Positions 5,260-50,417 of a stretch of DNA of 64,000 bases are shown in pieces. Numbering within the stretch: the stretch's first letter is position 1; every line of letters starts with the position of its first letter. The position numbers and the translations under genes were made by a program. The notes beneath the pieces are model-generated. The model made no database searches. It was not told the origin of the DNA and worked only from the letters and a program-made list of their open reading frames with translations. The DNA comes from an uncultured bacterium. GTDB lineage: Bacteria > Hydrogenedentota > Hydrogenedentia > Hydrogenedentales > JAEUWI01. The stretch lies in assembly GCA_963977445.1 (NCBI GenBank), contig CAXBPH010000004.1, positions 1,254-65,253 of the forward strand, given 5' to 3'.

Positions 5260-7263
5260 TTACTCGCTACGCTTACTCAATTGGGTCTCACGCATCCAGA
5301 ACCAGTACTCGTCCCGCTCCAGGTGCTTTTCCAATCGGCTGGGATGGCCCAGAAATTCGGCATACTGGGAAAACTTCTTTACGGTTGATGGGTCAGGAAC
5401 GGTACCCGCTGCTGCCAGTTCACCCAGCGTGAAGGACAACCACGCCATATCGGGCGCAAAATCAGGATACCCCGTTATATCGGGCCAGATAGCATTGGAC
5501 ACCTGCTGCAGGGGTTTCAAATTAACACCGGGAAGCAGATCGCCCAAGACGGTTTCCAACGCCAGCCGATCGTCCCGCCGGCCCCAGCCCACCGTGTCGG
5601 TTGGGTCCAGCCCATCAATTTTGGTCTGGAGATCCACCAATATGGATTCGTGCATCAGCTTCAGCAAGGCCCCCAGGGCGACAACATCACCCTGGGCGCG
5701 ATATATCTCTGCCCGAAGCAGGCGGGTCCGAAAGGTGTCACCATAAGCGGACAGGGCAGCCAAGGCGTCTTCGAAATTCTCCTGCGCACAGGCAACCCGA
5801 ACGACGGGCTCCAGGATTTGCTCCAAGGCGTCGGGGGCCTGTTTCAGATAGGCGTTGAGCACCACTTCCGCCCGACCATAATGGCCCTGACGCACCCACA
5901 AGTCGGTCAATCTTCGCACCGATTCAGAGCCCACCAAATCCCCTTTCAACCCCAGGGCTTTGGACAACTGCCGTTCCTCTTCGGCTTCATCATCGGTGCA
6001 GTGAAAATAGGAGGCCAGGGCCAGATGGAAGGCATAGGGACTTTCATCCTGGCCCTCCCGCAGTTTCCGCATGTGGATCGCCTGGTCATAGCCGTCCAAC
6101 AAGGTGATGGAGCGCATCTGCAACGCAATGTCCCGGGGCGTCGGATTGGGACACACGAGGGAAGTGGGCATCATGTCTAAGGCGTCCATCACACTGAGTA
6201 AGGCCACCGACAGGTCTTCATAGCTTTCCCATCGCTCTTCGGGCCGTTTGGCAAGACACTTCAGGATAATGCGTTCCAGCGCGGGCGGACAGATGTCGCC
6301 CACGGCGTTTCGAATCGACGGAACTTCCGCGGTCAGATGCTGTTGCTTCATGCGCACCAGCCGTTCCACGGTCGTGTCCCCCCGGACCAGGAAAGGGGGC
6401 ATGCCCGTGATGGCTTCATAGAGACAGCATCCCAGACCATAAATATCCGCGCGGAAGCTCACTTCGCTGGCGCGGAGAAATTGTTCCGGAGCCATATAGG
6501 CAGGTGTTCCAAAGATGGAGCCGATACGTGTTATATCCGTCGGCAGGTCCTCAAAAAAATCGGACTGAGATAGTTTTTCCAAGGTGTCGTCCGACATGGC
6601 CTTGGTGCGCACCAGGCCGAAATCCGTAATCTTCAATGTACCATCGGGCGCGATGAGCAGATTCTCTGGTTTGACGTCCCGGTGCACCAGCCCCGGCACG
6701 GCGCGGGTGGCGTGGATCATACCGGTGCAAAACTGGTGGCCCAAATCGAGCACATCGCGGGGGGAAAGGGGTCCTCGGTGTAATCGCTGAGAAAGGGAAT
6801 GCTCGTCGAGGTCATTTGACGGAACAAATTCAATAAAAAGGCAGGGGATGGCTTCGATAATATCCAGGCGCTGGGCGCACACCACATTGGGGTGGGTGCC
6901 GATGAGCATCCAGGTGCGGGCTTCACGGATGAAGCGCTGAAGTAGCTGGAGTTCGTGGCGGAAGCGCCGTTGGAGGGTTTTTACCGCGTAGGTGCGCCCA
7001 TGGTCGTCTTCCACGATATAGACGATACCCATGCCGCTGGTGCCGTGCCCCCCCCGAATATCCTTGATTTCAAAGCGGTCATCGAGACGATAGCCCAGGT
7101 GCCAGGCTTCTTCTAAATCGGGTACGGGCTCGCCCGTAATAAGTGTGGAAAGCGCGGCGGGGGTGGTTTTATCCGAATCCGGATCTTCGGCCATCAACGT
7201 ATCCCACAACTCAGGGCGGGATTTCAGAAAGGGTCGATGTTGTTCCGGGTTACTCGGTTGCAT
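5260..7263 (-). CDS. Hanks-type serine/threonine protein kinase with a roughly 350-aa C-terminal helical (TPR-like) domain. Cytoplasmic; no TM segment.
   Basis: Catalytic motifs HRDVKPENLLI, DFG and GTPAYMAPE are present. The track ORF begins at GTG 7269; the ATG at 7263 (MQPSNPEQ...) is the likelier start. Confidence 0.85.
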   Translation of the reverse strand: MQPSNPEQHRPFLKSRPELWDTLMAEDPDSDKTTPAALSTLITGEPVPDLEEAWHLGYRLDDRFEIKDIRGGHGTSGMGIVYIVEDDHGRTYAVKTLQRRFRHELQLLQRFIREARTWMLIGTHPNVVCAQRLDIIEAIPCLFIEFVPSNDLDEHSLSQRLHRGPLSPRDVLDLGHQFCTGMIHATRAVPGLVHRDVKPENLLIAPDGTLKITDFGLVRTKAMSDDTLEKLSQSDFFEDLPTDITRIGSIFGTPAYMAPEQFLRASEVSFRADIYGLGCCLYEAITGMPPFLVRGDTTVERLVRMKQQHLTAEVPSIRNAVGDICPPALERIILKCLAKRPEERWESYEDLSVALLSVMDALDMMPTSLVCPNPTPRDIALQMRSITLLDGYDQAIHMRKLREGQDESPYAFHLALASYFHCTDDEAEEERQLSKALGLKGDLVGSESVRRLTDLWVRQGHYGRAEVVLNAYLKQAPDALEQILEPVVRVACAQENFEDALAALSAYGDTFRTRLLRAEIYRAQGDVVALGALLKLMHESILVDLQTKIDGLDPTDTVGWGRRDDRLALETVLGDLLPGVNLKPLQQVSNAIWPDITGYPDFAPDMAWLSFTLGELAAAGTVPDPSTVKKFSQYAEFLGHPSRLEKHLERDEYWFWMRETQLSKRSE

Positions 7264-7272
7264 AACCACCTG

Positions 7273-7620: not shown

Positions 7621-8241
7621 GGGTGCTTAGTTCACTCCTGTGTATTCAACAACGTACCCCGTCAGTGTAGCGGATTTTCCTGCAGTTGGGCTACTTTTGT
7701 CTCAGTCTTTCCCCGGCTGGCGGCTTGGGAACCCTGAGTTCTGCGATTGCCGGCGCACCGACCGGATATTTCAAGTGCGCAATTGTAGCCTTGGGAGAAA
7801 TGATGTTGTACCATTTATTGTAGAAAGAAACGGCGACTTCGCAATTACTGCGAGCGGGGATAGTAACTATACGCTGGTTTTCGCCACACCTCGCCCCGGG
7901 GGCTTTTCAGACTCTTATGTATACGATATTTATATGGCAGGTGTTGGACCGGACGGCAATTGACTTGGGCGGAGGGCACGGGCCGTATAGTATCGTTTTG
8001 AGATCTTGGTGTAGTCTTTCGGGACCGTTTTTCGGAATCTATGCGGCCTACAATGGTTAGGGTGCGCCAATCGTCGCTCCAAGTGACTGCAATCAGGTCT
8101 CTTAGTCGCAAAAGGAAAAGTTGGCACGAATGGCGCTTATACCAACCTATGCGCAACGAAGCGCAGGGTCAGGAACGTGGGACAGCCCACGGATGCAGGA
8201 AGTCGAACAAGTTTCCCAAAAGGGAAACGGAGGAACACATC

Positions 8242-8460
8242 ATGAAAGACATCAAGGTAAACGATCTGGATGAAACGAAGAAGTCTGCCGAAGTGGAAAT
8301 GACCGAAGAAGAGTTGAATCAGGTGAAGGGTGGCGGATTGCTTCTTCCGGCGGTGCAGAAAGTGCGCGAAGCGGCGAGAAGCACCACCACAACCGCGAAG
8401 CTCGGCGACGGTTCGGTGCGCACCTTTAATGGTGCGCAGGGTGATGAAGGTAGCATGTAA
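8242..8460 (+). CDS. small (72 aa) double-glycine-leader peptide precursor (bacteriocin/RiPP-like), orphan
   Basis: Internal ATG at 8242 preceded by GGAGG with 9-nt spacing. The N-terminal 32 aa are acidic with no hydrophobic stretch and end 'TEEELNQVKGG', which matches the LSxxELxxIxGG leader consensus. A strong terminator follows. The upstream part of the longer track ORF (8041..) is not protein-like. Confidence 0.55.
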   Translation: MKDIKVNDLDETKKSAEVEMTEEELNQVKGGGLLLPAVQKVREAARSTTTTAKLGDGSVRTFNGAQGDEGSM

Positions 8461-8729: not shown

Positions 8730-9998
8730 CTATTCCACCGCCATCATATTTGACGAGACGATACAGCCACGGTCATCGGTGAGGTTGATGTAGTAGTGCG
8801 TGGTGCCTTCCGGCAGGGTTGACGATGCCGTCCCTGTAGCCGCATCGAGCATCGCGTCGACGGCTTCAAAAGGTACGACCAGATCGAGCCGCTTTGTGGA
8901 TTCTTTTTCGGCGTATTCAAAGGGGCCAACCATGGCGTAGAGGGTGGCGGCGGCCATGGGTTGCTGGCTTTCAAAATGGACCGTGACCTTTCGGTCTGCG
9001 TCGACTTCGGGTTGGTGGGTGATGCGTGCGAGTGGCGCGCCCGTGCCCTTGAGCAGGTGGTCCGCCGTCACGAAGATTTCGGGCACCATCTTCAGTTCCC
9101 AACCGGGGCCGTGGCCGTGGGGCATGCGGGGGTGAATGGAGAGGGTGGACTCCGGCCCGGCGCTGACGTGGGAGTGGGTTAACGTGTCAACGGAAAAGTG
9201 GGGGTCGTTGTCTCCATTTATCCAGACCATGGGCATGGGCGCGTTGGTGAAAAAGCGGGCCGGGTCCCAATATTTACGCTTCTCCAGGATCGCATCGTCC
9301 TTGGCACCCATGCGGTTGAAATAGCCTTTTGAATCGTAGAGATAACCGCAGCCATAGACGGGCGCGGCGAATACGAAGCGGTCGTCCAGCCCGCCGGTAA
9401 GGCTGCTGAGCACGCCGCCCCAACTGATGCCCGTCAGGCCGATGTGCTCGGCATCTACCGTGTCCAGCGAGCGAAGGAGGGAATTGGCCAGCATAATGTC
9501 GGCCACCGCGTGGTACATCCACTGTTCATTACGGGGCTTGTCCTGGTCGTCAAACATGCCGGTCCGTGCGGGGCCGCTGAAGGCATGACTTTCCCCGCCA
9601 CGCCAACCGTCGGGACCGGGCAGGCGGCCTTCGAGATCCATGGAAATGCTCGCGTAGCCCTGGTCATACCAGACCTGCACCCACTGGGGAAACGCCGTGC
9701 CACCGCCGCCGTGGGCGAGTACCATGCCAGGGAGCTTTTTGCCTGCCGGTGCTTCGGGAATGCCGAGGTAGGCGAAGACCCGCGTCGGTTTACCCATATA
9801 ATCGAGGCCATCATAATAAATCGCCTGGATGGGACCTTTGTCCAGCTCGGGAACGCGGTAGATCGTGGGCGTCTGGTAGACCGTGTCGCCGAATTGCTGG
9901 AGTAGCTCGGTGCGGGCGGCGGTGGAGTCCGCGTGGGCGTAGGTCGGGAGGCTAAGAAGAAGGACGGAGAGTGTTGCGACCAAGAGTTTTTTGTACAT
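8730..9998 (-). CDS. secreted alpha/beta-hydrolase, acetyl-xylan-esterase / dienelactone-hydrolase-like
   Basis: Signal peptide MYKKLLVATLSVLLLSLPTYAHA. GxSxG nucleophile elbow 'GISWGG' and downstream Asp/His. Confidence 0.8.
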   Translation of the reverse strand: MYKKLLVATLSVLLLSLPTYAHADSTAARTELLQQFGDTVYQTPTIYRVPELDKGPIQAIYYDGLDYMGKPTRVFAYLGIPEAPAGKKLPGMVLAHGGGGTAFPQWVQVWYDQGYASISMDLEGRLPGPDGWRGGESHAFSGPARTGMFDDQDKPRNEQWMYHAVADIMLANSLLRSLDTVDAEHIGLTGISWGGVLSSLTGGLDDRFVFAAPVYGCGYLYDSKGYFNRMGAKDDAILEKRKYWDPARFFTNAPMPMVWINGDNDPHFSVDTLTHSHVSAGPESTLSIHPRMPHGHGPGWELKMVPEIFVTADHLLKGTGAPLARITHQPEVDADRKVTVHFESQQPMAAATLYAMVGPFEYAEKESTKRLDLVVPFEAVDAMLDAATGTASSTLPEGTTHYYINLTDDRGCIVSSNMMAVE

Positions 9999-10274
9999 GA
10001 AGTATCGTGTCCTTTTACAAGGTAAACGGTTATTGCCAATGTGAACATTGAGGGGTGCCGTTTTTTCGGCCCATTCTGTCGTAATAGTGTATCGTCGGGG
10101 GTATCCGAAAGCATTGGCCCCATGAGTCAGCGATGGTCGTTGGCGGGGGGCGCTAGAGAAACCTCCGGCGACGGGAGATACGTCATCTTATCAGGCTTCG
10201 CGCTGCAGGAAATCGCTAATTGGTGCTGACTAGATGTTACCTGGTTGAAGTCCCTTCACCCACAAACTTCCCCC

Positions 10275-10451
10275 GCCTTGCTTCCGCCACGGCGGACGTT
10301 CCGCCTCCGTTTGAGGGTGGCACCCGTGGGGCATGAAGCTGATCTGGGGGTGGCGTTGATCAGTCGAAGTCTCTATACTACTAAAGTGTTTACTTTACAG
10401 CTCCCCCACGTTGCATCTGCCACAGGCGCACGTTCCGCCTCCCTTTGAGGG
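10275..10451. repeat. pair of ~37-nt imperfect direct repeats (about 10281-10317 and 10414-10451), each centred on the palindrome GGCGGAcgtTCCGCC
   Basis: cttccgccacggcggacgttccgcctccgtttgaggg versus catctgccacaggcgcacgttccgcctccctttgaggg. They lie in the intergenic region upstream of the esterase gene. Confidence 0.4.
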
Positions 10452-10613
10452 CCAACGGCGCGCCGCAGTTTGGTGACATAAATTACGTGTACGTGGCCAG
10501 CCAAGCGGGTGAATATTTCGTTTAAACGCTATGCGATATCGTTTTCGAATTCCATATCCCCTCAGAGCCTCTCTTTTTTGTGTTCTTTGCGTTCTCTGTG
10601 GTTAAAAATCCCC

Positions 10614-12987: not shown

Positions 12988-15402
12988 GTGAAGTACTATC
13001 ATTGCTATGCATACCTGTTTGTCGCCGTTGTTTTCTTTTTTTCTCCTGTATTCGCCCAGACGGCCCATGAGAATATTGCCCTGGATCGTCCCTATACCTA
13101 CAGCGCGCCGCCAAGCTATGCCCTCTGCACCGACCCGGATGACCCCATCCAACTGACCGACGGCGTCGACACGGAGGGCTATTTCTGGACCCAACCGGGC
13201 ACGGTGGGTTGGGCCAATCAGTTGAACGTGACGGTCACCATAGATTTGGGCAGTGACGTTGCCATTCGGGGCGTGTCCCTCCGCACGGCCGCAGGCTCCG
13301 CGGGGGTTGCCTGGCCCAGTGGGATTCGCCTGTTCGTCGCGGGTGAAGATCAGCAGTTTCGCCTGGCCGGCGATCTCCTCGCCCTCAACGCGTCCCATGG
13401 TGAGCCCAGCCCCGAGCCTTATGCCGTTCATCGTTATTGGACCGATGCCATGGAGACCCACGGGCGCTACGTGGCCTTTGTGGTGACCAACCAGCCCTTT
13501 ACCTTCATTGATGAACTTGAGGTTTTCGCCGGGGATCCTGGCTGGCTGAGCGCACCCGTGCCAGGACGTCCCATCGAGGATATCGCCGAATACCTGAGCG
13601 AGAGTCAGACGTGGGACGGTATCGCCCGGCGTCTGCGGCTTGATGGCGCGGTGATTCGTGCCCGTGCCGAGGCAAAGGGTGTCTCCGAAGTACTGCGGGA
13701 TAGCATCCTGCAGGAGCTCGATGCGATTACCGTGGCCGCCCAGCCCGATTTTGATGCGGACTACAGCGATTTTCGCGCCATCCTCCCACTCAACCCATGG
13801 CACACCCGGCAGTTCGCCTGTCAGGCCCAGTTGTGGCGCGCGGCCGGACTGGCTGAAATCGTCCCATGGCAAAACGACCTGTGGGCCCCCCTCGACCACC
13901 TGGCGACACCTCCCAACGAGGGTACGCCGACGGTACAGGTGGCCATGATGGACAATGAGTATCGCGCCGCGTCGCTCAACCTGAGCAACACGACGGAGGA
14001 GACCCAGGAATTCCACGTTGATATCGAGGGCCTCCCCGGCGGCACCAATCCCGACTACATTACCATCCACGAGGTTATTTGGACGGATACGGCCTCGGGC
14101 GTTCCTGTTGCCAGTGCCCTGCCCGAAGCCAATCGCACCGACACAGGCTCCTGGGTGATTCAAGTACCCAGTGGCATGACGCGCCAACTCTGGTTTACCT
14201 TCTATCCTCAGGGCGTGGCACCCGGCACCTACCGTGGACATATCGCACTCCGGGGTGTCCAGTCCCAGGATGTGCCTTTGGAATTTATCTGCTATCCCCT
14301 GCGCTTTCCCGACAATCCCACCCTGAGTTTTGGTGGATGGGACTACACCGATGGGGAGCAAAACCGGGGAATTAATGCCAACAACCGGGATGCCGTCATC
14401 GCCGATCTTAAGGCCCACTATGTCGATAGCCCCTGGGCCACGGGTGGCGTCCTGCCCCAGGGCGTTCACGATGGGGAAGGTCACATGACGATGGCCCCCG
14501 ATACCGCCCGATTCGATGAATGGATCGGGCGCTGGCCCCAGGCCACCAACTACTGCATATTCCCGGCAGTAGGTGATCACTTCGGCGATTGGACCATGGA
14601 CACGCCGGCCTTCAAGACTGCGGTGGGGGAATGGGCACGTTTCTGGGCGACCCATGCCAAATCCAAAGGCATCGAGGCGCGCCGTCTGTGTGTGCTTCTC
14701 CTTGACGAGCCCCATGAACCCGCACAAGACCAGATTATCATTGCCTGGGCGACGGCCATCAACGAGGCGGGCGTGGACTTCACGATATGGGAAGATCCTA
14801 CCTACCAGGGCGTCAGCGACAGCCAGGCTGCCCTTGCCGAAGTATGCGATGTGCTCTGCCCCAACCGGCCCATCTTCCTGAAATCCAATGAGGCCTACCG
14901 CGACTTTTTTCGCGGGGAGCGAGATAAGGGTACGCGACTGGAGTTTTACTCCTGTTCCGGGCCCACGACACGCCTCGATCCCTACAGCTACTTTCGTCTC
15001 CAGGCCTGGTCCTGTTGGGTCGAAGGGGCGTCCGCCTCCTATTTCTGGGCCTTTGGCGACAATGCCGATGGTTCGTCGTGGAATGAATACGTTTTACCGC
15101 GCAACATCTACACCCTGACCTTTCTCGACGACACGTCAGTCACACCGGCCAAAATGCTGGAAGCGGCCCGGGAGGGGATAGAGGACTACGAATACTTTGT
15201 CATGCTCCAGCAGGCTATCGACGCCGCCCCACCGGGGGCAGCGCGAGATCAAGCCATTCGCGTACTCGCAGAAGTGCCGGGTGCCGTCCTCGCGGCGGGG
15301 GAATCGCCGAGTCTGATGTGGAATGAAGATTTGGACCGAAGCCTTGCCGACGCAGGTCGCATTCGGGTTCTGGATGCCCTGGTCGCCCTTTCCTCCTCTT
15401 GA
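12988..15402 (+). CDS. secreted protein with an N-terminal F5/8-type-C (discoidin/CBM32-like) domain and a large putative glycoside-hydrolase domain
   Basis: GTG start with a CAAGGAG RBS. Signal peptide MKYYHCYAYLFVAVVFFFSPVFAQ. The amino-acid composition is protein-like. Function is assigned at family level only. Confidence 0.7.
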   Translation: MKYYHCYAYLFVAVVFFFSPVFAQTAHENIALDRPYTYSAPPSYALCTDPDDPIQLTDGVDTEGYFWTQPGTVGWANQLNVTVTIDLGSDVAIRGVSLRTAAGSAGVAWPSGIRLFVAGEDQQFRLAGDLLALNASHGEPSPEPYAVHRYWTDAMETHGRYVAFVVTNQPFTFIDELEVFAGDPGWLSAPVPGRPIEDIAEYLSESQTWDGIARRLRLDGAVIRARAEAKGVSEVLRDSILQELDAITVAAQPDFDADYSDFRAILPLNPWHTRQFACQAQLWRAAGLAEIVPWQNDLWAPLDHLATPPNEGTPTVQVAMMDNEYRAASLNLSNTTEETQEFHVDIEGLPGGTNPDYITIHEVIWTDTASGVPVASALPEANRTDTGSWVIQVPSGMTRQLWFTFYPQGVAPGTYRGHIALRGVQSQDVPLEFICYPLRFPDNPTLSFGGWDYTDGEQNRGINANNRDAVIADLKAHYVDSPWATGGVLPQGVHDGEGHMTMAPDTARFDEWIGRWPQATNYCIFPAVGDHFGDWTMDTPAFKTAVGEWARFWATHAKSKGIEARRLCVLLLDEPHEPAQDQIIIAWATAINEAGVDFTIWEDPTYQGVSDSQAALAEVCDVLCPNRPIFLKSNEAYRDFFRGERDKGTRLEFYSCSGPTTRLDPYSYFRLQAWSCWVEGASASYFWAFGDNADGSSWNEYVLPRNIYTLTFLDDTSVTPAKMLEAAREGIEDYEYFVMLQQAIDAAPPGAARDQAIRVLAEVPGAVLAAGESPSLMWNEDLDRSLADAGRIRVLDALVALSSS

Positions 15403-16006: not shown

Positions 16007-17143
16007 TCAGCCTGGCCAGCTCTGGCCCGGGAAGAGCGTGGAAGGCTTATAGGCGTATTCGTTGTTCACCCAGGTCGTGCTGGCACCCAGTTTGGCCCAT
16101 TCTACGTGGCCATCCATGAAAAGCACATTCTGTCCACCGGGAACGTGGTTGAAACGGCCCCAGGTGGCACCACCGCCGCCTTGGGATTCGTCATACATCG
16201 TTACGATGTTCGACTGGGCACTGGCTGACGCGGCCGCGTTGTTGATGTCGGTAATCAGGAAGCGCTCGATACCTTCACCCAGGCGGTTGAAACTCGCTCT
16301 GACGCCGGAGGGGAGGGTGACTGAGGTTGTGCTGTTACGCAGTTTCCACATCATGGGGGTTTGGTCAACGGCAGGCGCACCGGGCCATACGCCCGCAAGG
16401 TTGCCGGTGTTGAGCAGACGGCCAACGGCCTGGTAGTCGTCGACATTCTGGAACCAGTCGTCGTCCAGGGCGAATACCATGTATTTATAGGCCCGCATGT
16501 CGGTGAAGCCGGTCTTGACCAGGTCCGTGTGAGGATAGGGCGCGCAATACTGGGGGTTCACATCGCAGGCGTTGTAACAACGGGAGGAGTTGGAGCCGCA
16601 AACGGGAATTATTTCCGGTTCGCCGCCGGTCAGGCCAACCTTTCCGTAGCAGGGGTTGTCGGTTTCGTTGTTGGCAGTTGCCCAGGCGACGATGGAATCA
16701 TCGCACCCGCCCATCGTGTTCCGCGCCGAGCTCCAGTCCGTAGCAGAATAGACTCCGGTTCGCAGGGCCGACGGGCACTGGCCGATGAGCATGTCGGTCA
16801 GATATTCGGGGTACACCTCGGACCAACCGACGTAGACCGCCGTGCGTTTTGTGACGTTGTTGAAATTGTTTCCGCCATGGTCCAGGCTGCCATAAGGAAA
16901 TTTCTCGCCCTTACTTTCACCACTGAACATCTTCAGAATAATGCCCCACTGTTTGAGATTGTTCTGACAACTTGAGCGGCGTGCTGCTTCCCGCGCCCGG
17001 GCCAGCGCCGGCAGCAGAATCGCCGCGAGAATGCCAATGATGGCAATTACCACAAGTAACTCAATTAACGTAAAACCCTTCCGAGTATTTCTTTTAAATT
17101 CGATGTTCATAACGCTAGATCCCTTTTGGTATAAAAAGCTCAT
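16007..17143 (-). CDS. DUF1559 / 'H-X9-DG' protein with a prepilin-type N-terminal cleavage/methylation domain (type II-secretion pseudopilin-like). Typical of Planctomycetota.
   Basis: [44 protein letters not shown] near the N-terminus. The true start is probably the ATG at 17110 (MNIEFK…). Confidence 0.85.
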
Positions 17144-18235
17144 GAATGCGCAATGTATTTGGAAAAGGCTGAAATTGAGGTGAGGTTGTTACCGGTGTTT
17201 CTACAGCGTGTCTGTTCGAGATATAAAGATATAAAAATGACACGTCCCGCGAATGCGGCCGTACGGCCTGCCATGGGCAACGGTAACTCATGCCATAGGC
17301 ACTCTCCTTTCCCAATCCGGGCGGTGACAAAATGGTGGGCACTTGAATGTTCATCCAGGTTCCCCGAATAGGGAACCGGAGGGGCCCGCCGCACCGGTTC
17401 AGCCAAAAATTATTCCTCTACCCAACCCTACTTTGGCTGATGTGATATTCGCACATATCTATAAGCATGTCAATCGCTTTTTTTTGAAGGTTTTCGGCCT
17501 TGAAACTAAGTAGCTTTTCCTGCCGAAACGGCCCGATGTACAGGGAGAAAAAAGGCATCTGACGATCCGTAACCTCTTTAGGAGCTACCACTTAGTTTTA
17601 GGAGGGCAGATCACCATGTTCCTAGTGCAATCCCAGAGCATAGGGAGGCTGCCAGCGCTGCCGTGTCGTGACGTCGTGGCGGGAGCTTCCCGAAATGGGA
17701 ATGAGGCGCCGGAAAGCGTACCCCAGGTCGCCCAGGTTTATGGGATTGTCCGGATGACGGAAGTTGGACAATCGCATTAAATGCTCCCGCTGTAGACCGC
17801 GTCTCCCCGTTGCCGAACAGGATGGACGCCGGGGTGCCACCCGATCCGGTATTCCCGGTTCGGGTGTCTTGGGCCGCGACTGCCAGGTGGGTTCGCGGAA
17901 GACTTGGCGGTGGCCTTGTTCCAATGTAGAGATTGCGTTGAACTGCGCTACGGTGTCCTTCACGTCATTCTGACAAAGGTGTGGGTCAAGGCATACGAAG
18001 CCACTCTTGTCGGCGTGACCAATTCCGTGCGACTGCCCGGATGACGGAAGTCGGTGTGGTCAGCGGGCCGTCGGGGTGTGCTAAACTCCGGGCGGAACGA
18101 CAATTTGTCCATATTTTTTGAAGGCTGTGGGTGAATGCGTCAGGAATCCTGGAGACGTAAGATGGCCTGTTTTTGCCGTCCCAAGAGCTAACCGGGTCTG
18201 AGGCGAACTGTCAACACTACAAAGGACGATATCTG

Positions 18236-20617
18236 GTGACAAATCTGGTAGGCGATATTCATAACAAAACGTTTCGATTCTGGGCCGGTGCAGGAAAAAT
18301 TGCGACCATCCTATACTTCGCAACTCTTTCCCATCCATCCCAGGCCGCCGAAGTATCCGAGACCGGTTCCACCGAGGCCTTTGCCCAGGCGTTGGTCGAC
18401 ACCCTGCCCGTGGAGGAGCCCTATGCCTACCACAAGCGGCTCAACGAAACGCCCGTCCACCAGCCCAGTCGCAATACCAACGCCCAGCCCACCGACGATG
18501 AAATGTCCCTCCCTGCGACGGGATGGACCCTCATCCGGCGGGGGGACAGCCCGGCCCTGGTGGAGCATGCCGTCGCTGACTTTCAGGATTATCTGAAACA
18601 CTCCATGAACGTGGAGATTCAGGTGGCGCAGAAAGAAAGCCTTGCCGACTGGCAGCAGTGGGAACAAGCTATCATCGTCGGCACGAAAGCGGATTTCCCA
18701 GAACGGGGCGCGTCGCTCACGGGCCCGAAGGACTATGAAATAACGGCAACGGCGACCCAGATTACGGTCTGTGGTTTTGATGATAAGGGGGCCCTGTTCG
18801 GTCTCTACAACCTGGAGGCCCGCATGAACCTTCGGGAGGCCCCTTACCTTCCCGCCGACCTGAATACGGTCCGCCACAGTCTCCACGAGACCCGCATGGT
18901 CCAATCGTGGATGGGCTGGATGGAGTTCCCCGACACCGTACTTTCGCACATGGCCCACGACGGGTTCGACGCGGTATTTGCCTCGGTGTATACCAACCCC
19001 AATGGCGACCGGACTACGGCGGAGAACTCTACCGACTTCTACGCCCGCCTCATGCGTCGCATTCGCCACCAGGATCCCGCCCGGGTGCGCAGTCTGATTG
19101 ACCGGGCCAAGGTGCAGGGTATCAAGGTCTATACCCCCATAATTTATCAATACACCGGCACCCCCGAGAGCGAAGCCGACCTCCGCCGTCTCGTGCGCGA
19201 GATTCTCACCGAGTTTCCCGATATTGCGGGTTATGTTCTGCTGACGGAAGGCTTCTGGTACAACAAGTGGGGTGGTGGACACGGCGCGAGCAAAGAATAC
19301 ATTGAAGACTGGGCGCGAAACTGGACCTATGCTGTCGGCGTGGTGGCAGAAGAGTGTCACAAGGTCAATCCCGATATCGAAATACTCCCGTGGGAATATA
19401 ATATCGATTTTCGTCCCTCCAACGTGGAGACCAAGCGCTATTTCATTCAGCAGCTTCCCGAAGGGACCACACCCCTCCTCACCTGGGAAAATGGTAAGAG
19501 TTTTGAGATAGACGGCATGGAAGGCCACCTTCGTGACTACGGCATCAACGTGGTGGGGCCCGCCGAAGTGACGGATGCTCAGATTGACGAAGCGCGAAGC
19601 CGTGGCATGAAGGTCTACTCCAATGCCCAGACCTTTTCTTGTGGTGCCCAATTGCAGACCGTGCCCTACAACCCCTTTCCGCAGCAGTGGCACGCCCGCT
19701 ATGAAAAGCTGGCGGAATATAAGATTGATGGCACCCTGGAGAGTTGGTCTTCGGGCTACAACCCGAGTTTTATGACTGAGCTCCGTTCCTGGTATTGCTG
19801 GAGCGAGGCACCGCCCCTTAATGACCTGCTCCTGAAGATCGCTGCCCGGGATTTCGGCGCGGAGCATGCCGCCGATGTGGTGAAGGCGTGGGATCTCTTC
19901 AGTCAGGCCGTTCGTCTGCTCCCCGATACGGGACCCTACATGGGCACCACCAATGCCATCGGCAACCCCATCTTCTTTGAAAAGCCCCCGGCGCGGACGG
20001 CCACCTTCAACTATTCCTGGATGGATCAGGGGCAGTGGTCCAGCTACCTGGGTGCCGAGGTGAATCCCTATTGGCCCTACACGGTGACCCGCCTCGTGTT
20101 CCTGCCCGATTTCAACAACAATTATAATGCCGCGGAAAATTACGCCCGGGGCGTATCCGGAATTGAAGCGCCTGGGGAAATCGCCGTGCTTCCCGTCTTC
20201 TTGAAATACCTCCGCAAAACCACCGACCTCCTTGGTGAAGGACTGGTGCTCTACCGCAATGCGGCCCTGGCAAGCCCCGAAGACAAGCGCGCCGACGCAA
20301 TGCGCGAAGTCATCGTGGCCGAGCAAATGCACCGCATGCTCCTGAGCAGCCAGGCCATCCTCGGTTTCGAGCAACTGCGCCTTGAATTGTCAGCGGAGCA
20401 GGATAGTGAGAAGGCAACCGCCATGTTGGCAACGATGGAAGGTCTGGTGCGGGAAGAAATCGCCCGCACCGAACGGGCCGTCATCGCCGTGGATCGGGAC
20501 TCGCGCCTTGGCTTCCAGTTTGAGTGCGATTATGTCTATACGAATTATTCGTTGAACGAAAAGCTCGACATTCTTCGTGACACCCTGGAGCGCCAACTGC
20601 CTGCCGCCGCCCGGTAG
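18236..20617 (+). CDS. secreted putative glycoside hydrolase: GH20-like zincin-fold N-terminal domain followed by a TIM-barrel-like domain
   Basis: Long ORF with protein-like composition. Track start is TTG 18173; GTG 18236 gives a plausible signal peptide (…KIATILYFATLSHPSQA|AE). Segment 'ITVCGFDDKGALFGLYNLEARMNL' resembles beta-hexosaminidase-type N-domains. Confidence 0.65.
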   Translation: MTNLVGDIHNKTFRFWAGAGKIATILYFATLSHPSQAAEVSETGSTEAFAQALVDTLPVEEPYAYHKRLNETPVHQPSRNTNAQPTDDEMSLPATGWTLIRRGDSPALVEHAVADFQDYLKHSMNVEIQVAQKESLADWQQWEQAIIVGTKADFPERGASLTGPKDYEITATATQITVCGFDDKGALFGLYNLEARMNLREAPYLPADLNTVRHSLHETRMVQSWMGWMEFPDTVLSHMAHDGFDAVFASVYTNPNGDRTTAENSTDFYARLMRRIRHQDPARVRSLIDRAKVQGIKVYTPIIYQYTGTPESEADLRRLVREILTEFPDIAGYVLLTEGFWYNKWGGGHGASKEYIEDWARNWTYAVGVVAEECHKVNPDIEILPWEYNIDFRPSNVETKRYFIQQLPEGTTPLLTWENGKSFEIDGMEGHLRDYGINVVGPAEVTDAQIDEARSRGMKVYSNAQTFSCGAQLQTVPYNPFPQQWHARYEKLAEYKIDGTLESWSSGYNPSFMTELRSWYCWSEAPPLNDLLLKIAARDFGAEHAADVVKAWDLFSQAVRLLPDTGPYMGTTNAIGNPIFFEKPPARTATFNYSWMDQGQWSSYLGAEVNPYWPYTVTRLVFLPDFNNNYNAAENYARGVSGIEAPGEIAVLPVFLKYLRKTTDLLGEGLVLYRNAALASPEDKRADAMREVIVAEQMHRMLLSSQAILGFEQLRLELSAEQDSEKATAMLATMEGLVREEIARTERAVIAVDRDSRLGFQFECDYVYTNYSLNEKLDILRDTLERQLPAAAR

Positions 20618-20729
20618 CGCATAGTTCGGGCCGCAGGCGTTCAAAAACAGGGAGGGCGTAGTTTCTTCTGGATCCTGTTTGTCTAACATTTAGTGTTTTA
20701 ATACTTAGACGAAAGTGTTATAATCAACC

Positions 20730-21668
20730 ATGGTCTATGAAGAACCTCGACATCCTATCAATTTTGTTGCCCAACGAACGGGCCTCTCTACCCACGTTAT
20801 TCGGGTTTGGGAGCGGCGTTACGCGGCAATTGTCCCCAAGCGGTCCGACACCAATCGACGTTTGTATAGCGACGCCGATGTGGACCGTTTGAAGCTGCTC
20901 AACCGCGTTAAGGCCCAGGGGCAGTCCATTCGGCTCATTGCCCAAATGCCCAATGACGAGTTGAAACGCATGTTGACGGAGGTCGATGGTGACAAGCTGA
21001 GTCCCGACGCCGCCCTGGGCCTGGGTGAGCATCAGGACGTATTGCAGGAGCTCTTTGGCACCTGCAAAGAGGCCGTGCTGGGCATGGATGAGGAACGTCT
21101 CGCGAGGACCCTTTTGAACGCTAGTGTGCGGCTCCCCTTATTGGTCTTACTCGACCAACTGGTTGGGCCCTTGATGACCTGGGTAGGGGACCGCTGGCAT
21201 GATGGTTCTATACGGGTGGCCCACGAGCACATGGCCTCGGCCGCGATTCGCAGTTTCCTGGGTCGCATTAAACCGATTCGCCATACCGGTGAGGGCGCAC
21301 CCTGCATCGTCATCGCAACCCTCTCCGGCCAGGATCACGAAATTGGCGCCCTTATGGCCGCCACGATAGCGGCCAACGAAGGGTGGCGTGATCTCTATCT
21401 CGGCCCCGATCTTCCGGCGCAGGAAATTGCGCTGGCGGCCATGGAAGCCAACGCCAAAGCGGTCGCTGTCAGTATCGTATCGCCGGGAAACAATCCGGCC
21501 GTGATTCACGAGTTTCGAACCCTCCGCAACATCCTCGAAGAGCGTGTGCCCTTGCTGGTAGGTGGTGGGGGCGTGGCGCAGAATCGTCTGCATTACGAGC
21601 TCGACCATGTTTTCTGCTGCGCAGACCTTGCGGAATTTCAGACCCAATTACTCCGCGAAAACAGCTGA
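20730..21668 (+). CDS. carH: CarH/LitR-type light-responsive transcriptional regulator (MerR HTH plus a cobalamin-binding domain)
   Basis: N-terminal MerR HTH (INFVAQRTGLSTHVIRVWERRY). B12-binding 'GQDHEIGALMAA…LYLGPDLP', near-identical to Thermus CarH 'GERHEIGAMLAA…LYLGPDTP'. The photoreceptor-specific W-x9-EH motif is present (W HDGSIRVAH EH). Confidence 0.8.
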   Translation: MVYEEPRHPINFVAQRTGLSTHVIRVWERRYAAIVPKRSDTNRRLYSDADVDRLKLLNRVKAQGQSIRLIAQMPNDELKRMLTEVDGDKLSPDAALGLGEHQDVLQELFGTCKEAVLGMDEERLARTLLNASVRLPLLVLLDQLVGPLMTWVGDRWHDGSIRVAHEHMASAAIRSFLGRIKPIRHTGEGAPCIVIATLSGQDHEIGALMAATIAANEGWRDLYLGPDLPAQEIALAAMEANAKAVAVSIVSPGNNPAVIHEFRTLRNILEERVPLLVGGGGVAQNRLHYELDHVFCCADLAEFQTQLLRENS

Positions 21669-21908
21669 CTTCCGCCTGAACTTAGCTTCTGCCGCGCACT
21701 CCGGAATTACTTCGAGACTCAACCGTGTCCATGCGGTGATATCGAGTGGATCGGCAAACGAGGGCGGCACCATGGCAGGCGGGTCGAAGACGCTTTCCAG
21801 CGCTTTCGCCCCCCACGGCTGTCTTGAGACCAAAACGCTACAAAACGCATTATTTGGGTTCCGTAGCCGTGAAAGCCGTATACTACGAAGCGAAATGGAG
21901 TATGTGTA

Positions 21909-22457
21909 GTGAATCGACAAGTAATTCTGGTGGACGAAAATGATACCCCTATCGGTGAAGCCGATAAACTATCGGTGCACCGCTCCGGGGAACTACACCG
22001 CGCCTTTTCCGTTTTTCTCTTTGATCGCGATGGTCGATGGCTCCTTCAGCAGCGCCATCCCGATAAATACCACTCGGGTGGGCTCTGGACGAATACGTGT
22101 TGCAGTCATCCGGAACCGGGTAAGTCCACGGACGCAGAGGCCCGATCGCGGTTGCGTATGGAGATGGGTATCGACACGGCCCTGGAGCCGTCCTTTCAAT
22201 TCCACTATCGTGCCGAATTAGACGGCACGCTAATTGAGCACGAACTCGATCATGTATTCCTCGGTCACTTTGACGGGGTTCCCATGCCCAACGGCGAAGA
22301 AGTATGCGACTGGCGATGGGTAGAGACGTCAGACCTGCTGGAAGAGCTGAAGCAGACACCCGCTGCCTTCACCTACTGGTTTCGCCTTGTAGTGCCCCGG
22401 GTAATTCGCGCCGTGGCCGACACGCAGAAACACGCTCCGTTGGAAGAGACGGGCTAA
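21909..22457 (+). CDS. idi: isopentenyl-diphosphate delta-isomerase, type 1 (Nudix)
   Basis: GTG start. 'HRAFSVFLF…NTCCSHP…E' is the type-1 IDI signature (catalytic Cys and Glu). Confidence 0.9.
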   Translation: MNRQVILVDENDTPIGEADKLSVHRSGELHRAFSVFLFDRDGRWLLQQRHPDKYHSGGLWTNTCCSHPEPGKSTDAEARSRLRMEMGIDTALEPSFQFHYRAELDGTLIEHELDHVFLGHFDGVPMPNGEEVCDWRWVETSDLLEELKQTPAAFTYWFRLVVPRVIRAVADTQKHAPLEETG

Positions 22458-22620: not shown

Positions 22621-24300
22621 ATGAAGGCAGAACTAATTCGCGGGGTGCGCAGTGGGGTGCTGGCTGTCGCACTGCTCGTCGGACTCTCGTCATGCTATCC
22701 CAACGTGCTTATTTCGCGGTTTCAACTCATCAACCAGACGCCCTTTGAGATTACATTCTTTGCGGTTGCTGATTCGGAAGCAGGGATTGCCACGGCCGAA
22801 AACAGCCTGACCTCGCCCCTCACCGCGAATGCCGTTGCCGATCTCGACGTAGACCGTCCCGGCGGCTATTGGCTCAAAGGCGTCGCCAATGCCAACGGCA
22901 AATCCATAGAATTTATCCGTGGTCCCATTTCCATGACCAATGGCATTGTCGGGTGGACGTGGGGCATGTCGGGCGACACGATTGTCGTGGGTACCGAGCC
23001 ATCCTCACTCTATGCATCGACGACCCTGCCCATCCTGGTCATCGACACCAACGCGACGGCCATTCCAGACGAACCTAAAATCGATGCCACCCTCTATGTC
23101 ATCGACAATGAAGATGCAGCGGTCAATAGGCCCTCCACGACCGACGTGACCTTCAGCACACGTATTGGTATCGAGCGACGTGGGTATTCCACCCAGACCT
23201 TTCCCAAGGCTTCCTGGGGCTTCGAATCACGGGATGAAAACAACGAAGATACCAATGTGGAACTTCTGGGCATGCCCAGCGAAGAAGATTGGGTGCTCTA
23301 CGGCCCCTGGATGGATCGGAGCCTGATTCGTAACGTGTTTGGTTACGAAATCTGGGGTGCTCTGGGGTGGTATGCACCGCGCACCCGCTTTTGTGAAGTC
23401 TATCTGCGCGACGACCCCGCAGCGAGTCTGACCGATTCCTACGAGGGGCTCTATGTGCTCACAGAAAAGATTAAACGTGATGGTGATCGCGTCGATATCA
23501 AGAAACTGGGACCAGATGACAATGCCGAGCCCGAAATTACGGGTGGCTATCTCATGGAAATGCGCGAGCCCGACCGCCTGGACCCCGATGAAGTGGCCAT
23601 CCCCATTTCGGATGGCTTTGTGCTCACCCCCGTTTCGCCCAACAGCGCCCAGATAACGACGGAGCAAGTCACGTGGTTTACCAACCACATCACCGCCTTT
23701 GAGACGGCCCTCTTTGGTGAAAATTTCCGCGACCCGGAAACGGGTTACGCCGCCTACATTGATGTGGATTCCTTTATTGAGTACATGTTGCTCCAGGAAT
23801 ACTTCAAGAACCGCGACGCCTTCCATTCCAGTACCTTTCTCTACAAAGACCGGGAAGATGTCATTCACATGGGGCCCATCTGGGATCTGAATATCGCCAT
23901 GGGTTATTTCAGTTTTCAGGGTTTGCAAGAGACCAGCGGCTGGTTGTTGACGGGAGAGCGGAGCCGGATTTCTCGGAGCCCCTGGACCGCGCGTCTGCTG
24001 GAAGACCCCGACTTTGCCCAGCGCTATGCCGACCGGTGGAGTACGCTGCGCGCCGAGTTGCTCTCCGTAGGCAAAGTAAACAATCGAATCGATGCCATCG
24101 TGGCCCAGTTGGACACGGCACAGGCCCGGCAGTTCATCCGGTGGCCATCCCTGGGCATGACCTTGCTCCCCGACTTCAAGTTTCTCATGTTCACCGGCCC
24201 CCATCCCGACTCGTATCAAGGTGAAATCGACTATCTCAAGAGCTGGCTCTACGAGCGGGCGAATTGGATGGATGCGAATATCGGATTACTGGTACCGTAG
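22621..24300 (+). CDS. CotH-family (atypical kinase fold) lipoprotein
   Basis: Lipobox LVGLSSC. Segment '…AYIDVDSFIEYMLLQEYFKNRDAFHSSTFLYKD…' is typical of the CotH family. AAGGA RBS. Confidence 0.7.
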   Translation: MKAELIRGVRSGVLAVALLVGLSSCYPNVLISRFQLINQTPFEITFFAVADSEAGIATAENSLTSPLTANAVADLDVDRPGGYWLKGVANANGKSIEFIRGPISMTNGIVGWTWGMSGDTIVVGTEPSSLYASTTLPILVIDTNATAIPDEPKIDATLYVIDNEDAAVNRPSTTDVTFSTRIGIERRGYSTQTFPKASWGFESRDENNEDTNVELLGMPSEEDWVLYGPWMDRSLIRNVFGYEIWGALGWYAPRTRFCEVYLRDDPAASLTDSYEGLYVLTEKIKRDGDRVDIKKLGPDDNAEPEITGGYLMEMREPDRLDPDEVAIPISDGFVLTPVSPNSAQITTEQVTWFTNHITAFETALFGENFRDPETGYAAYIDVDSFIEYMLLQEYFKNRDAFHSSTFLYKDREDVIHMGPIWDLNIAMGYFSFQGLQETSGWLLTGERSRISRSPWTARLLEDPDFAQRYADRWSTLRAELLSVGKVNNRIDAIVAQLDTAQARQFIRWPSLGMTLLPDFKFLMFTGPHPDSYQGEIDYLKSWLYERANWMDANIGLLVP

Positions 24301-35525: not shown

Positions 35526-35802
35526 AAAAATTGCAGGAATACTAACCAGGAAACGATATACCTTGAACAAATCCAGCCTGTTCGTTACGGCCTCGTATCC
35601 AAACTGCGATGAAAGGGGATAGTGCCGCTGGCATGACCACTATCTCCCCAAATAGTCTTTGACCATTGGGAGCGCAGGTCTCGGACGCGCCAAAGGAGGG
35701 CGGCTCGCCTGCATTACGTCGAAGACGTAAGGACGACGTGCCCTCGGTCCGTGACGGGCGATTAATCGTGTTGAAAGATGTCCAAAGTCAATTTTCGCTT
35801 AG

Positions 35803-36849
35803 TTAAACAATGGGGAGGTCCGTCACCGCTTCCTGCTGATAGGCCTGCTCGGCGAAAGACGCGAGTAAGAGCCGGTCTTCATTGCGGAGAGATGTGTCCC
35901 CCGAAACCGTCGCAATATTGACATCGAGGTCCTCGGCTACCGAAACACCGATGTTCAAGAGCTGTATGCGGTTGTCGTTCAGTACCCACCGAATCGCGGA
36001 GGCCGGCAATTTTTTCACGGCCTCGCGGTCATATTCGCTGACCAGCTTACCCGCGTTGTGGCCAAAGATACTGGCCCCCATGACTTTCATGGCGAGTATG
36101 CCCATATCCAGCTCGCTGGCCCGGGCGACGCAGCGCTCACGATTGGCCAGTGAACGATTGGAATGGCGCGTGTTGTACCCTTTGTGAAAATAGCCGAACT
36201 CGACCAGGAGCGAGTCAAAGCCGCCCGTATCGATAAGTTTGAACATTTCCTCGAAGCGCGAATGGCCCGTAAGTCCGACGAAGGAAAATAGCCCTTCGTC
36301 CCGCATTTTCACAAGCTCTTCGACAAAGGGCATACACCCCTCGTAGCCCTGACGCTCAATCACGGGGCCGTGAAGTTGCATACAGTCAATCTTGTCCATC
36401 TTCAACGTCGTCAGGGTCTGCTCCACACTCTTACGCACGTCATCGGCCGATCCCACCAGCACCTTGGAGGCAATATAGATTTCGTCCTTCACATCATGAA
36501 GGGCCTCTGAAAAAATCTTTTCGCTGTCACCATAGATGCGGGCCGTGTCGAAATACCGGAGGCCTTTTTCGTAGGCCGTCCGCACCATCTTCACCCGGGC
36601 CTCATAGGGGCCCGAAGCAATACCGTAGTACTCGTCTTCCTGCGTCATGAGAGGGGCACTGCCATAGGCGAGGACCGGCAATTCGAAGCCCGTCTTGCCA
36701 AAGCGACGGGTGGGCATGTTGCCCGTGCCAGCCACCTGCTTGCCTCCCGTTGGTGCCGCTACGCTGGCGCTGCTGGCCGCCAATACACCCGTTGCCAAGC
36801 CTGCTTGCAGGAAAGTACGGCGACCCATACCTGATTTGTTCGCGTCCAT
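35803..36849 (-). CDS. aldo/keto reductase with a Tat signal peptide
   Basis: Internal ATG at 36849 preceded by GGAGGA. 'MDANKSGMGRRTFLQAGLATGVLAASSASVAA'. AKR motifs (…LRYFDTARIYG…). Confidence 0.85.
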   Translation of the reverse strand: MDANKSGMGRRTFLQAGLATGVLAASSASVAAPTGGKQVAGTGNMPTRRFGKTGFELPVLAYGSAPLMTQEDEYYGIASGPYEARVKMVRTAYEKGLRYFDTARIYGDSEKIFSEALHDVKDEIYIASKVLVGSADDVRKSVEQTLTTLKMDKIDCMQLHGPVIERQGYEGCMPFVEELVKMRDEGLFSFVGLTGHSRFEEMFKLIDTGGFDSLLVEFGYFHKGYNTRHSNRSLANRERCVARASELDMGILAMKVMGASIFGHNAGKLVSEYDREAVKKLPASAIRWVLNDNRIQLLNIGVSVAEDLDVNIATVSGDTSLRNEDRLLLASFAEQAYQQEAVTDLPIV

Positions 36850-50368: not shown

Positions 50369-50417
50369 ATCAAACAGGCGTCTCCATAGAAGTAAAGACG
50401 TCCAGGAGGCAATCGGT

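Follow-up and report, generated by a model that had tools for sequence, protein, structure and literature searches.

CarH serves as the model for B12-based photoreceptors and is an optogenetic part in wide use; to our knowledge, its characterisation has so far been confined to Thermus, Bacillus, Streptomyces and myxobacteria. Clusters of carotenoid (crt) genes can include idi, which encodes isopentenyl diphosphate (IPP) isomerase, as in the crtE-idi-crtXYIBZ cluster of Pantoea. The CarH of Thermus thermophilus (TtCarH; PDB 5C8D, 5C8E, 5C8F and 3WHP) joins a MerR winged helix to a four-helix bundle with a Wx9EH motif and to a Rossmann B12 domain whose lower ligand is a His, and it is autoregulated through three tandem 11-bp repeats with TnnACA cores that lie over a -35 region. 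The CarH proteins of Bacillus megaterium and of myxobacteria (M. xanthus, Cystobacter, Sorangium and Haliangium) are adenosylcobalamin (AdoCbl)-dependent repressors with Wx9EH, whose operators are tandem direct 11-bp repeats, in varying numbers of true and pseudo repeats, over -35 or -10 elements, and whose genes lie in or near carotenoid clusters, sometimes with genes for isoprenoid precursors such as HMGR (PMC9304148). The class II LitR proteins of Pseudomonas (PplR1 / PmlR2) instead use a palindromic TGTACA-N12-TGTACA operator over the -35 element and control general light-response genes, for example photolyase (PMC9758184).

The window analysed here is a 64-kb stretch of DNA from an uncultured marine Hydrogenedentota bacterium, in which an earlier note had described a 312-residue regulator with a MerR helix-turn-helix and a B12-binding domain. 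The open reading frame of this regulator (carH) occupies positions 20730-21668 on the + strand. Its first in-frame start codon is the ATG at 20730, and an alignment of homologues reveals that the N-terminus M-x-YEEPRHPINFV is kept from residue 1. The 312-aa product has the described architecture, with Pfam matches to MerR_1 (residues 11-73, E 2e-16), B12-binding_2 (residues 112-180) and B12-binding (residues 192-286; 33.3 bits, cutoff 32.1). Among solved structures, TtCarH is its best relative (3whp/5c8d, E 2e-25). Likewise, when an AlphaFold model of the protein (pLDDT 86.4) was compared with the PDB by Foldseek, the top 12 matches were full-length TtCarH chains (E 1e-15 to 6e-13), the best being 5c8d/5c8e/5c8f at E 1e-15, and the modelled B12-binding module superimposes on that of TtCarH with a TM score of ~0.8 and an rmsd of ~3 A. 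The equivalog NF052513 (TransRegCarH) is the best NCBIfam match, yet it scores 123.9 bits where 400 are needed. We treat this shortfall as the mark of a narrowly trained model and do not count it as evidence against family membership.

The residues expected to contact DNA and cofactor are all in place. Residues 25-31 (RVWERRY; 20802-20822, + strand) match the RxWERRY motif defined for the DNA-recognition helix (PMC9304148), with R25, W27, E28 and R30 invariant in our alignment of homologues (A1). The Wx9EH motif, predicted to cap the adenosyl group, reads WHDGSIRVAHEH (residues 156-167; 21195-21230, + strand). W156, E166 and H167 are invariant across the 20 homologues of A1 and align with W131, E141 and H142 of TtCarH, and in both proteins the Trp is followed by His (H157 in the window protein). 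The DxHxxG element, D202-H203-E204-I205-G206 (21333-21347, + strand), supplies the predicted lower axial cobalt ligand, H203, which aligns with His177 of TtCarH and begins the second hallmark, HEIGALMAA...LYLGPD; both hallmarks had been recognised in the earlier note. H203, G206, S248, G278 and G279 are also invariant across the 20 homologues, and the spacings of 41 and 27 in D202-x-H203-x2-G206, S248-I-V and G278-G279 fit the published CarH signature D/ExHx2G-x41-SxT/V-x22-27-GG (PMC9304148).

The resemblance to TtCarH extends to the MerR winged helix, the four-helix bundle and the Rossmann B12 domain, but the two proteins are only ~28% identical. D202 and D227 take the places of the Arg176-Asp201 salt-bridge pair in the TtCarH dimer; of the two glycines at the tetramer interface, one remains (G218) and the other is replaced by H185; and a ~30-residue low-confidence linker (pLDDT below 50 at residues 85-98) runs between the DNA-binding domain and the B12 module. 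PplR1 and PmlR2 share the MerR-type DNA-binding domain family and TGT...ACA half-sites with the window protein, but they have no Rossmann B12 domain and depend on a LOV partner, whereas the window protein has the full B12 module. On its sequence hallmarks and a predicted fold nearest to TtCarH, the protein is most probably a true photoreceptor-repressor of the CarH/class-I LitR type, as had been proposed, and an ordinary-looking member of the B12 light-sensor repressor family.

The promoter region of carH is AT-rich, as previously remarked, with a GC content of 0.39 at 20650-20749 compared to ~0.58 around it. Within it lies a predicted CarH operator, TGTCTA-N20-TAGACG (20680-20711, an inverted repeat on neither strand in particular), with half-sites at 20680-20685 and 20706-20711. 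The strict form of this pattern has its sole match in the 64-kb window at carH, where 0.07 matches are expected. Across 10 aligned Hydrogenedentota carH promoters (alignment A3) neither TGTCTA nor TAGAC varies, with nothing conserved upstream of them, and four further promoters (L089-L092) repeat the layout, bringing the related promoters to 14. Allowing up to one mismatch, 28 matches were found in 1.06 Mb of related loci, nearly all within ~1 kb of carH, and the element also adjoins carH in KSB1, Latescibacterota, Poribacteria and Zixibacteria. The half-site corresponds to the TnnACA core of the published 11-bp repeats (PMC9304148), TGTCTA being TAGACA read on the opposite strand.

The arrangement of these half-sites differs from that of described CarH operators. 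The invariant pair in the window is inverted rather than tandem, with half-sites 26 bp apart centre to centre, and the inner 11-bp repeats are degenerate; the three repeats of TtCarH and the published operators of B. megaterium and myxobacteria are tandem. The inverted operator can be written as TGTCTA-N19/20-TAGACA, often with 2+2 repeats, and in L053, L016 and L004 a central -35 element, TTGACA, is placed 11 bp from TAGACA.

Downstream of the operator is an extended -10 element, TGtTATAAT (20716-20724, + strand), whose TG, TAT and final T are invariant in A3. Its TATAAT (20719-20724) ends 5 nt ahead of the ATG at 20730. An extended -10 (TGnTATAAT) stands 5-6 nt ahead of the ATG in 14/14 related promoters, where L089-L092 carry TGnTATA(A/C/G)T, and likewise in L053. 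This conserved spacing favours the earlier proposal of a leaderless message, and carH mRNA probably starts at or beside the A of the ATG. Relative to that predicted start the operator spans approximately -50 to -19, covering the -35 region and spacer, and the layout common to the 14 promoters supports a carH that would be both leaderless and self-repressed. In a scan of the window for TATAAT-like -10 elements 4-7 nt before a start codon, carH was the sole strong case. One other, putative match to the -10/start-codon pattern lies at 8062.

A different operator had been suggested previously, namely an AGTGTT direct repeat (20692-20697 and 20714-20719, + strand; 22 bp start to start). We rejected this candidate. 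The repeat is no more than chance would produce, because a repeated 6-mer of one kind or another turns up in 57% of shuffled versions of this 90-bp stretch, and its columns are unconserved in A3, with the second copy overlapping the TGn of the extended -10.

The next gene, idi (21909-22457, + strand), has a GTG start and encodes a 182-aa type-1 IPP isomerase, confirming its earlier assignment. The protein scores above the cutoffs of NF002995 (165 bits; cutoff 127) and TIGR02150 (131.9 bits; cutoff 105.8). Its best PDB match is 3hyq (E 5e-28), with which its TNTCCSHP and EHE segments align at TNSVCGHP and ENE, the catalytic Cys and Glu segments. In the 240-bp spacer between carH and idi (21669-21908) are a -10-like element, TATACT (21879-21884), and, as ribosome-binding site, GGAG (21897-21900). 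No CarH operator was found in the spacer even with two mismatches allowed, and a search of the whole window at that stringency gave, beyond the carH site, five matches versus 6.4 expected, none of them upstream of idi. Searches for structured RNA or a riboswitch in the spacer found nothing (RNA fold z-score -0.72), and an Rfam search of the whole window returned no match. When compared with L082, a related locus with the same layout, only the last ~50 nt of the spacer align, and in this segment TGCTATATT and GGAG are at the same positions.

The spacer is also where related loci hold their carotenoid genes. In crt-bearing relatives, Hydrogenedentota metagenome-assembled genomes with a CarH identity of 74-79%, a five-gene cluster of crtD-like, crtB, crtI, crtE and crtY lies between carH and idi; L002, L004, L005 and L085 have this arrangement. 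A CarH-type operator is present at the idi promoter in three of these loci (L004, L005 and L085) and in four Poribacteria loci, where idi is the first gene of an operator-controlled crt operon (idi-x-lycopene cyclase-crtI-crtI-crtB). As in Pantoea, type-1 idi resides in or beside crt genes both in the Poribacteria operon and in the presumed ancestral Hydrogenedentota locus. These arrangements support the view that idi was historically part of the CarH regulon. The window, unlike the Pantoea cluster, TtCarH and the B. megaterium and myxobacterial systems, has no crt gene adjacent to carH or idi, and linkage of carH to carotenoid genes, although typical of the family, is not obligatory. As the earlier note had remarked, other crt genes are absent from the window: tblastn with 11 crt proteins of related loci gave none at E<=1e-3 in the 64 kb, and Pfam scans of ~30 other open reading frames revealed nothing related to carotenoids. 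A search for crt remnants at 21660-21915 by tblastn (E<=50) and sensitive blastn returned only noise (best E 0.05 against a 255-bp database).

Synteny between the window and L005 extends to either side, with an 804-aa gene upstream and idi-CotH downstream in common. The crt-less carH-idi layout recurs in L082, L089 and L090 (80% identity) and in L003, whereas L087 and L092 keep carH but also lack idi, and L091 retains only the crtD-like gene of the crt cluster. In identity matrices of both CarH and idi, crt-less loci are sisters of crt-bearing loci. By this comparison, the crt cluster and the idi operator have disappeared from the window lineage and, in separate events, from at least two others, and the adjacency of carH and idi looks like a relic left after loss of the five intervening crt genes. 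We rejected the L003 spacer as a clean deletion product; its similarity to L004 and L085 is limited to the 3' end of carH and the final ~22 nt ahead of idi. A metagenome scan with a single CarH protein recovered four loci.

We favour an explanation, to which we assign a probability of roughly 0.72, that combines a CarH photoreceptor-repressor, an operator on its own gene, a leaderless carH, a relic adjacency to idi and probable targets elsewhere. From the biochemistry of the family, CarH in the dark would bind AdoCbl, form an oligomer and occupy the predicted operator at 20680-20711, which overlaps the -35 region and spacer of carH's own extended -10 promoter and so would bring about self-repression. 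UV, blue or green light would cleave the Co-C bond, the oligomer would disassemble and the promoter would be freed to yield the leaderless transcript. Comparison of loci indicates that the ancestral Hydrogenedentota locus carried carH, then crtD-like-crtB-crtI-crtE-crtY on the opposite strand, then idi, with a second CarH operator on the idi promoter in the divergent region between crtY and idi. The lineage of the window would have lost the five crt genes together with that operator, leaving idi with its plain -10-like element and ribosome-binding site. With no operator of its own and the crt cluster gone, idi would have read-through from the carH promoter as its one possible route to a light response.

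A related proposal goes further, holding that CarH has been uncoupled from carotenogenesis, with the adjacent crt block lost at least three times independently while purifying selection continued to act on carH, its operator and its leaderless promoter, and now serves a different light regulon, perhaps including idi by read-through, through an inverted-operator geometry. We regard this as possible and put it forward tentatively. If it is true, the protein-DNA geometry differs from the tandem-repeat mode of the TtCarH-DNA crystal structure.

The earlier note had instead suggested that light-induced entry into carotenogenesis may take place at idi, and a version of this claim, in which carH and idi form a light-induced unit that feeds carotenoid precursors to crt genes elsewhere in the genome, deserves consideration. 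The two genes share a strand, and no terminator-like site is predicted between them on the + strand, either here or in L082 and L003. The pair is kept together in at least three crt-less lineages, and in crt-bearing relatives a CarH-type operator stands before idi, which in the four Poribacteria loci heads the crt operon. However, in the window no operator lies upstream of idi, which has a -10-like element and a ribosome-binding site of its own at the positions seen in L082; no crt genes occur within 64 kb; and L087 and L092 retain carH without idi. Furthermore, L003, a 7.9-Mb complete genome in which this layout recurs, shows no orthologous crtI in the protein collection: the listed members of the crtI cluster include those of its sisters L004 and L085 but none from L003. 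No Tara-sourced crtI was present among the best 120 crtI homologues listed. We consider a light-induced carH-idi unit rather unlikely. Of the overall interpretation given in the note, then, the CarH type of the regulator, the leaderless carH and the historical place of idi in the CarH regulon stand, while the AGTGTT operator and idi as an entry point do not.

A B12-binding domain by itself does not prove photoregulation, the dimer salt bridge of TtCarH is not conserved, and class II-V LitR (PMC9758184) and CarA (PMC9304148) show that modes independent of B12 exist in the family. The regulator might be a corrinoid sensor that responds to B12 and not to light, or else a repressor that, like CarA, works without B12 and depends on a partner anti-repressor. 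Either is very improbable, since the published criterion that separates CarH from CarA is an intact Wx9EH plus the lower-ligand His motif (PMC9304148), both of which are intact and invariant here, and since in relatives the linked genes are those for carotenoids, photolyase and DUF1722, all typical of light protection. Finally, it is hardly credible that carH is a decaying remnant without function whose conservation merely reflects recent crt loss, as repeated loss of the crt cluster around carH and the lack of any other visible operator-bearing target in the window might suggest, because carH is intact in every crt-less locus, its dN/dS for crt-less L003 versus crt-bearing L004 and L085 (0.058-0.061) compares with 0.066 for the crt-bearing pair L004/L085, the L082 lineage has diverged from the window at 20% of residues and yet has preserved all cofactor residues, the operator and the distance from the -10 to the ATG, and non-crt light-response genes appear to be regulated in distant members of the clade.

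In the favoured explanation, by contrast with decay, CarH would remain in use. Values of dN/dS for carH are 0.06-0.12 in all pairs, crt-less loci included, and because CarH is under purifying selection its present role is presumably to regulate its own gene together with light-response genes at other places in the genome. In distant clade members the operator adjoins photolyase, sigma-factor, fasciclin and DUF1722 genes, neighbours that resemble the regulon of PplR1 and PmlR2.

These findings extend the CarH family, on sequence evidence, to the uncultured marine phylum Hydrogenedentota, and the locus offers a testable operator and promoter with a predicted 32-bp inverted element, a predicted extended -10 and a predicted leaderless start. 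They also carry a lesson for annotation, in that CarH beside idi alone is no indication of light-induced carotenogenesis. Across the loci there is a natural series of carH-crt-idi, carH-idi, carH with only the crtD-like gene, and carH alone, in which the regulator outlives its classic target genes, and this series may help in asking which other genes B12 photoreceptors control.

The open reading frame at 20730-21668 (+) encodes a 312-aa protein with the Pfam domains MerR_1 (residues 11-73), B12-binding_2 (112-180) and B12-binding (192-286). Residues 156-167 read WHDGSIRVAHEH, and an HEIGA motif begins at residue 203. The top phmmer match among PDB sequences is CarH of Thermus thermophilus (TtCarH; 3whp/5c8d, E 2e-25), an AdoCbl-dependent photoreceptor-repressor. 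In the printed phmmer alignment, from which the offset for TtCarH numbering was worked out, W156, E166 and H167 align to W131, E141 and H142, and H203 aligns to the lower-ligand His177. These motif residues are the published criteria that separate CarH from CarA (PMC9304148). Across 20 homologues covering 41-100% identity, W156, E166, H167, H203, G206, S248, G278, G279 and the residues of RxWERRY are invariant. The 12 best PDB matches of the AlphaFold model (pLDDT 86.4) are all full-length TtCarH chains (E 1e-15), and the B12 module of the model superposes on that of TtCarH with a TM of about 0.8.

All sequence- and fold-level tests thus place the protein in the CarH/class I LitR group. It does not reach the NCBIfam CarH equivalog cutoff, which belongs to a narrowly trained model, and the salt bridge of the TtCarH dimer is not conserved. 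An identical protein (P0001) occurs among the Tara, NCBI, ENA and Logan records. The closest relatives (72-80% identity) come from Candidatus Hydrogenedentota/Hydrogenedentales MAGs, and further relatives (40-47%) from many uncultured phyla.

The next gene, idi (21909-22457, +), has a GTG start with GGAG 8 nt upstream. Its product is a type-1 IPP isomerase: the score exceeds the cutoff of both NCBIfam equivalogs, and 3hyq can be aligned with its catalytic segments. A search of all 64 kb found no carotenoid (crt) genes. Because domains and motifs, isomerase scores and the negative crt search agree, the earlier note's observation of a CarH regulator beside idi, with no other crt genes in the window, is confirmed.

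We compared 14 carH upstream regions, namely that of the window and those of related loci L001-L005, L082, L083, L085, L087 and L089-L092. All 14 share TGTCTA-N20-TAGAC(A/G)-N4-TGnTATA(A/C/G)T, followed after 5 or 6 nt by ATG, and nothing else. In the window the half-sites TGTCTA and TAGACG lie at 20680-20685 and 20706-20711, the extended -10 element TGtTATAAT at 20716-20724 and the start codon at 20730. The strict operator pattern matches once in the window against 0.07 expected. The related loci, 1.06 Mb in total, contain 28 matches with at most one mismatch. Almost all are within ~1 kb of carH, including those in KSB1/Deferribacteres, Latescibacterota, Zixibacteria and Poribacteria MAGs. 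We conclude that TGTCTA-N20-TAGAC(A/G) is the predicted CarH operator of this clade, placed where bound CarH would cover the -35 region and spacer.

In characterised CarH operators an 11-bp repeat has a TnnACA core, and the -35 element lies inside one repeat (PMC9304148). The window half-site corresponds to this core. In L053, L016, L004 and L085 the two half-sites enclose a TTGACA -35 element at a distance of exactly 11 bp from TAGACA, and several distant loci have a 2+2 arrangement such as TGTCTA-N5-TGTCTA-N9-TTGACA-N5-TAGACA. Whereas the Thermus and Bacillus operators are tandem, the conserved outer pair of the operator predicted here is inverted, so that the core motif matches the family while the orientation is unusual. 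What look like arrays of 2+2 or 3+1 repeats, in which TGTnnA repeats are followed by inverted TnnACA repeats, both with 11-bp spacing, occur at L016 3792-3845, L030 7179-7242, L056 4932-4973 and L021 7880-7921. This head-to-head design was not found described in the published account of CarH operators (PMC9304148).

The AGTGTT direct repeats (20692 and 20714) previously put forward as an operator can be set aside; they occur at chance level, are not conserved, and the second copy is the TGn of the extended -10 element. Two other operator-like matches were noted. In L085, carH and the crtD-like gene are separated by ~600 bp of non-coding DNA (9946-10538) with a one-mismatch TGTCTA-N20-TAGGCA at 10445-10476, a match that may be due to chance. 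In the window, the two-mismatch TGTCCA-N19-TAAACA at 35779-35809, overlapping the 3′ end of an aldo/keto reductase gene, is probably meaningless, since the count of two-mismatch matches equals the chance expectation.

The carH extended -10 element ends 5 nt upstream of the only possible start codon. No in-frame start lies between the preceding stop codon and this ATG, and the conserved N-terminus starts at residue 1. The 5-6-nt spacing holds in 14 of 14 promoters and recurs in L053, and the earlier prediction that carH mRNA would be leaderless is well supported by this conservation. Only one other TATAAT-like candidate precedes an ORF start in the window, at 8062, where the putative ORF 8041-8460 has TACAAT, 7 nt and a GTG opening 132 codons. 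The carH start is the only clear example of this pattern in the window.

The window is syntenic with related locus L005 (CarH identity 78% by alignment, 79% by tblastn), sharing an upstream 804-aa gene, carH, idi and a downstream CotH gene. In L005, as in L002, L004 and L085, five opposite-strand genes lie between carH and idi, encoding a crtD/I-like oxidase, phytoene synthase, phytoene desaturase, polyprenyl (GGPP) synthase and a CrtY-type lycopene cyclase, with idi divergent from this operon. The short divergent region of the crt-bearing relatives carries an operator of the carH type, TGTCAA-N19-TAGACG or CAGACA, that points toward idi, the -35 element being TTGACA or TAGACA. Four Poribacteria loci have carH diverging from an operon of idi, an unknown gene, lycopene cyclase, crtI, crtI, crtB and acyltransferase, with an operator between carH and this operon. 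CarH-type operators at these sites in relatives mark idi as an old member of the predicted CarH regulon.

In the window the crt block is absent, and carH and idi are separated by 240 bp of unrelated DNA. We found in this spacer no crt remnant, no operator even with two mismatches allowed, and no terminator or unusual RNA structure. Alignment with the corresponding L082 spacer is confined to the last ~50 nt, in which a -10-like element (TATACT in the window, TGCTATATT in L082) and GGAG are at matching positions. A light-induced idi as entry to carotenogenesis, as proposed earlier, describes the ancestral locus fairly; it is not supported for the window's organism.

Other relatives also lack the block. 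L082, L089 and L090 (80% identity) and L003 have carH-idi without crt, L087 and L092 have carH without crt or idi, and L091 retains carH with a crtD-like gene only. In L091 (83-2635; 78% CarH identity) the crtD-like oxidase is convergent with carH, with flagellar FlgK and FlgM directly after, a layout resembling a partly completed loss of the cluster. CarH and idi identity matrices agree in grouping L082 with crt-bearing L005, and L003 with crt-bearing L004 and L085, leaving the window as a third lineage. This grouping implies at least three losses of the crt block; for one cluster to have inserted repeatedly at a single site is much less parsimonious. The 90%-identity crtI cluster that holds the L085 and L004 sequences has no member from L003, a 7.9-Mb chromosome, which suggests real loss rather than relocation there. 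None of the 120 best crtI matches is Tara-sourced, which is weak evidence for real loss in the window's own genome.

Sequence comparison indicates that the AdoCbl-photoreceptor module of CarH is intact. By analogy with family biochemistry, AdoCbl-CarH oligomers on 20680-20711 would block the carH -35 region and spacer in the dark; in the light the Co-C bond would be cleaved, the oligomer would dissociate and leaderless carH mRNA would be made. With the idi-proximal second operator of the ancestral locus gone, idi would be transcribed from its own weak promoter. Judged from the sequence alone, read-through from carH is possible and would be the sole means by which light could induce idi.

Several other genes in the window were noted. 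The CotH kinase-family gene directly 3′ of idi (22621-24300; E 3e-59) keeps this position in L005, L082, L089 and L090, and no link between it and CarH was found. The region upstream of carH is bordered by genes for two ~810-aa proteins without Pfam domains (12988-15402 and 18173-20617); L005 has a homologue of the first (68% identity) in the corresponding place. The gene at 16007-17143 (-) encodes a 378-aa protein whose N-terminal segment is of the prepilin type. Such proteins form large paralogous families in Planctomycetes/Verrucomicrobia-like genomes, and its presence fits an environmental, non-model phylum. At 43603-52592 a Ser/Thr kinase (793 aa), a 723-aa protein without Pfam match, another Ser/Thr kinase (703 aa) and a 724-aa protein that weakly matches the PQQ_2 beta-propeller follow in a row that looks like a duplicated kinase-partner pair; one more kinase lies at 5260-7269 (-).

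The dN/dS of carH is 0.058-0.061 between crt-less L003 and crt-bearing L004 and L085, 0.066 within the crt-bearing pair L004/L085, and 0.084 between the window and L082, both crt-less. Operator and promoter geometry is kept in all crt-less loci. Homologues of crt genes lie within 8 kb in just 16 of 80 genome loci. In distant clade members the same operator type adjoins genes for DNA photolyase, a ~280-aa sigma-70-family factor (four loci), which recalls the LitR-LitS cascade of Streptomyces, fasciclin-domain proteins (three loci) and a DUF1722/2-thiouracil-desulfurase protein. These non-carotenoid neighbours lie at L007 8960-10321, L008 6799-7650 (-), L016 3895-4740, L022 351-1199 (-), L039 333-1166 (-), L030 7278-7850, L056 4319-4834 (-), L012 3689-4189 (-) and L053 6570-7532 (-), and further CarH targets may sit elsewhere in the window's genome. 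Given such neighbours and the limited crt linkage, this CarH clade looks like a general light-response regulator, which would explain why carH is kept in loci without crt.
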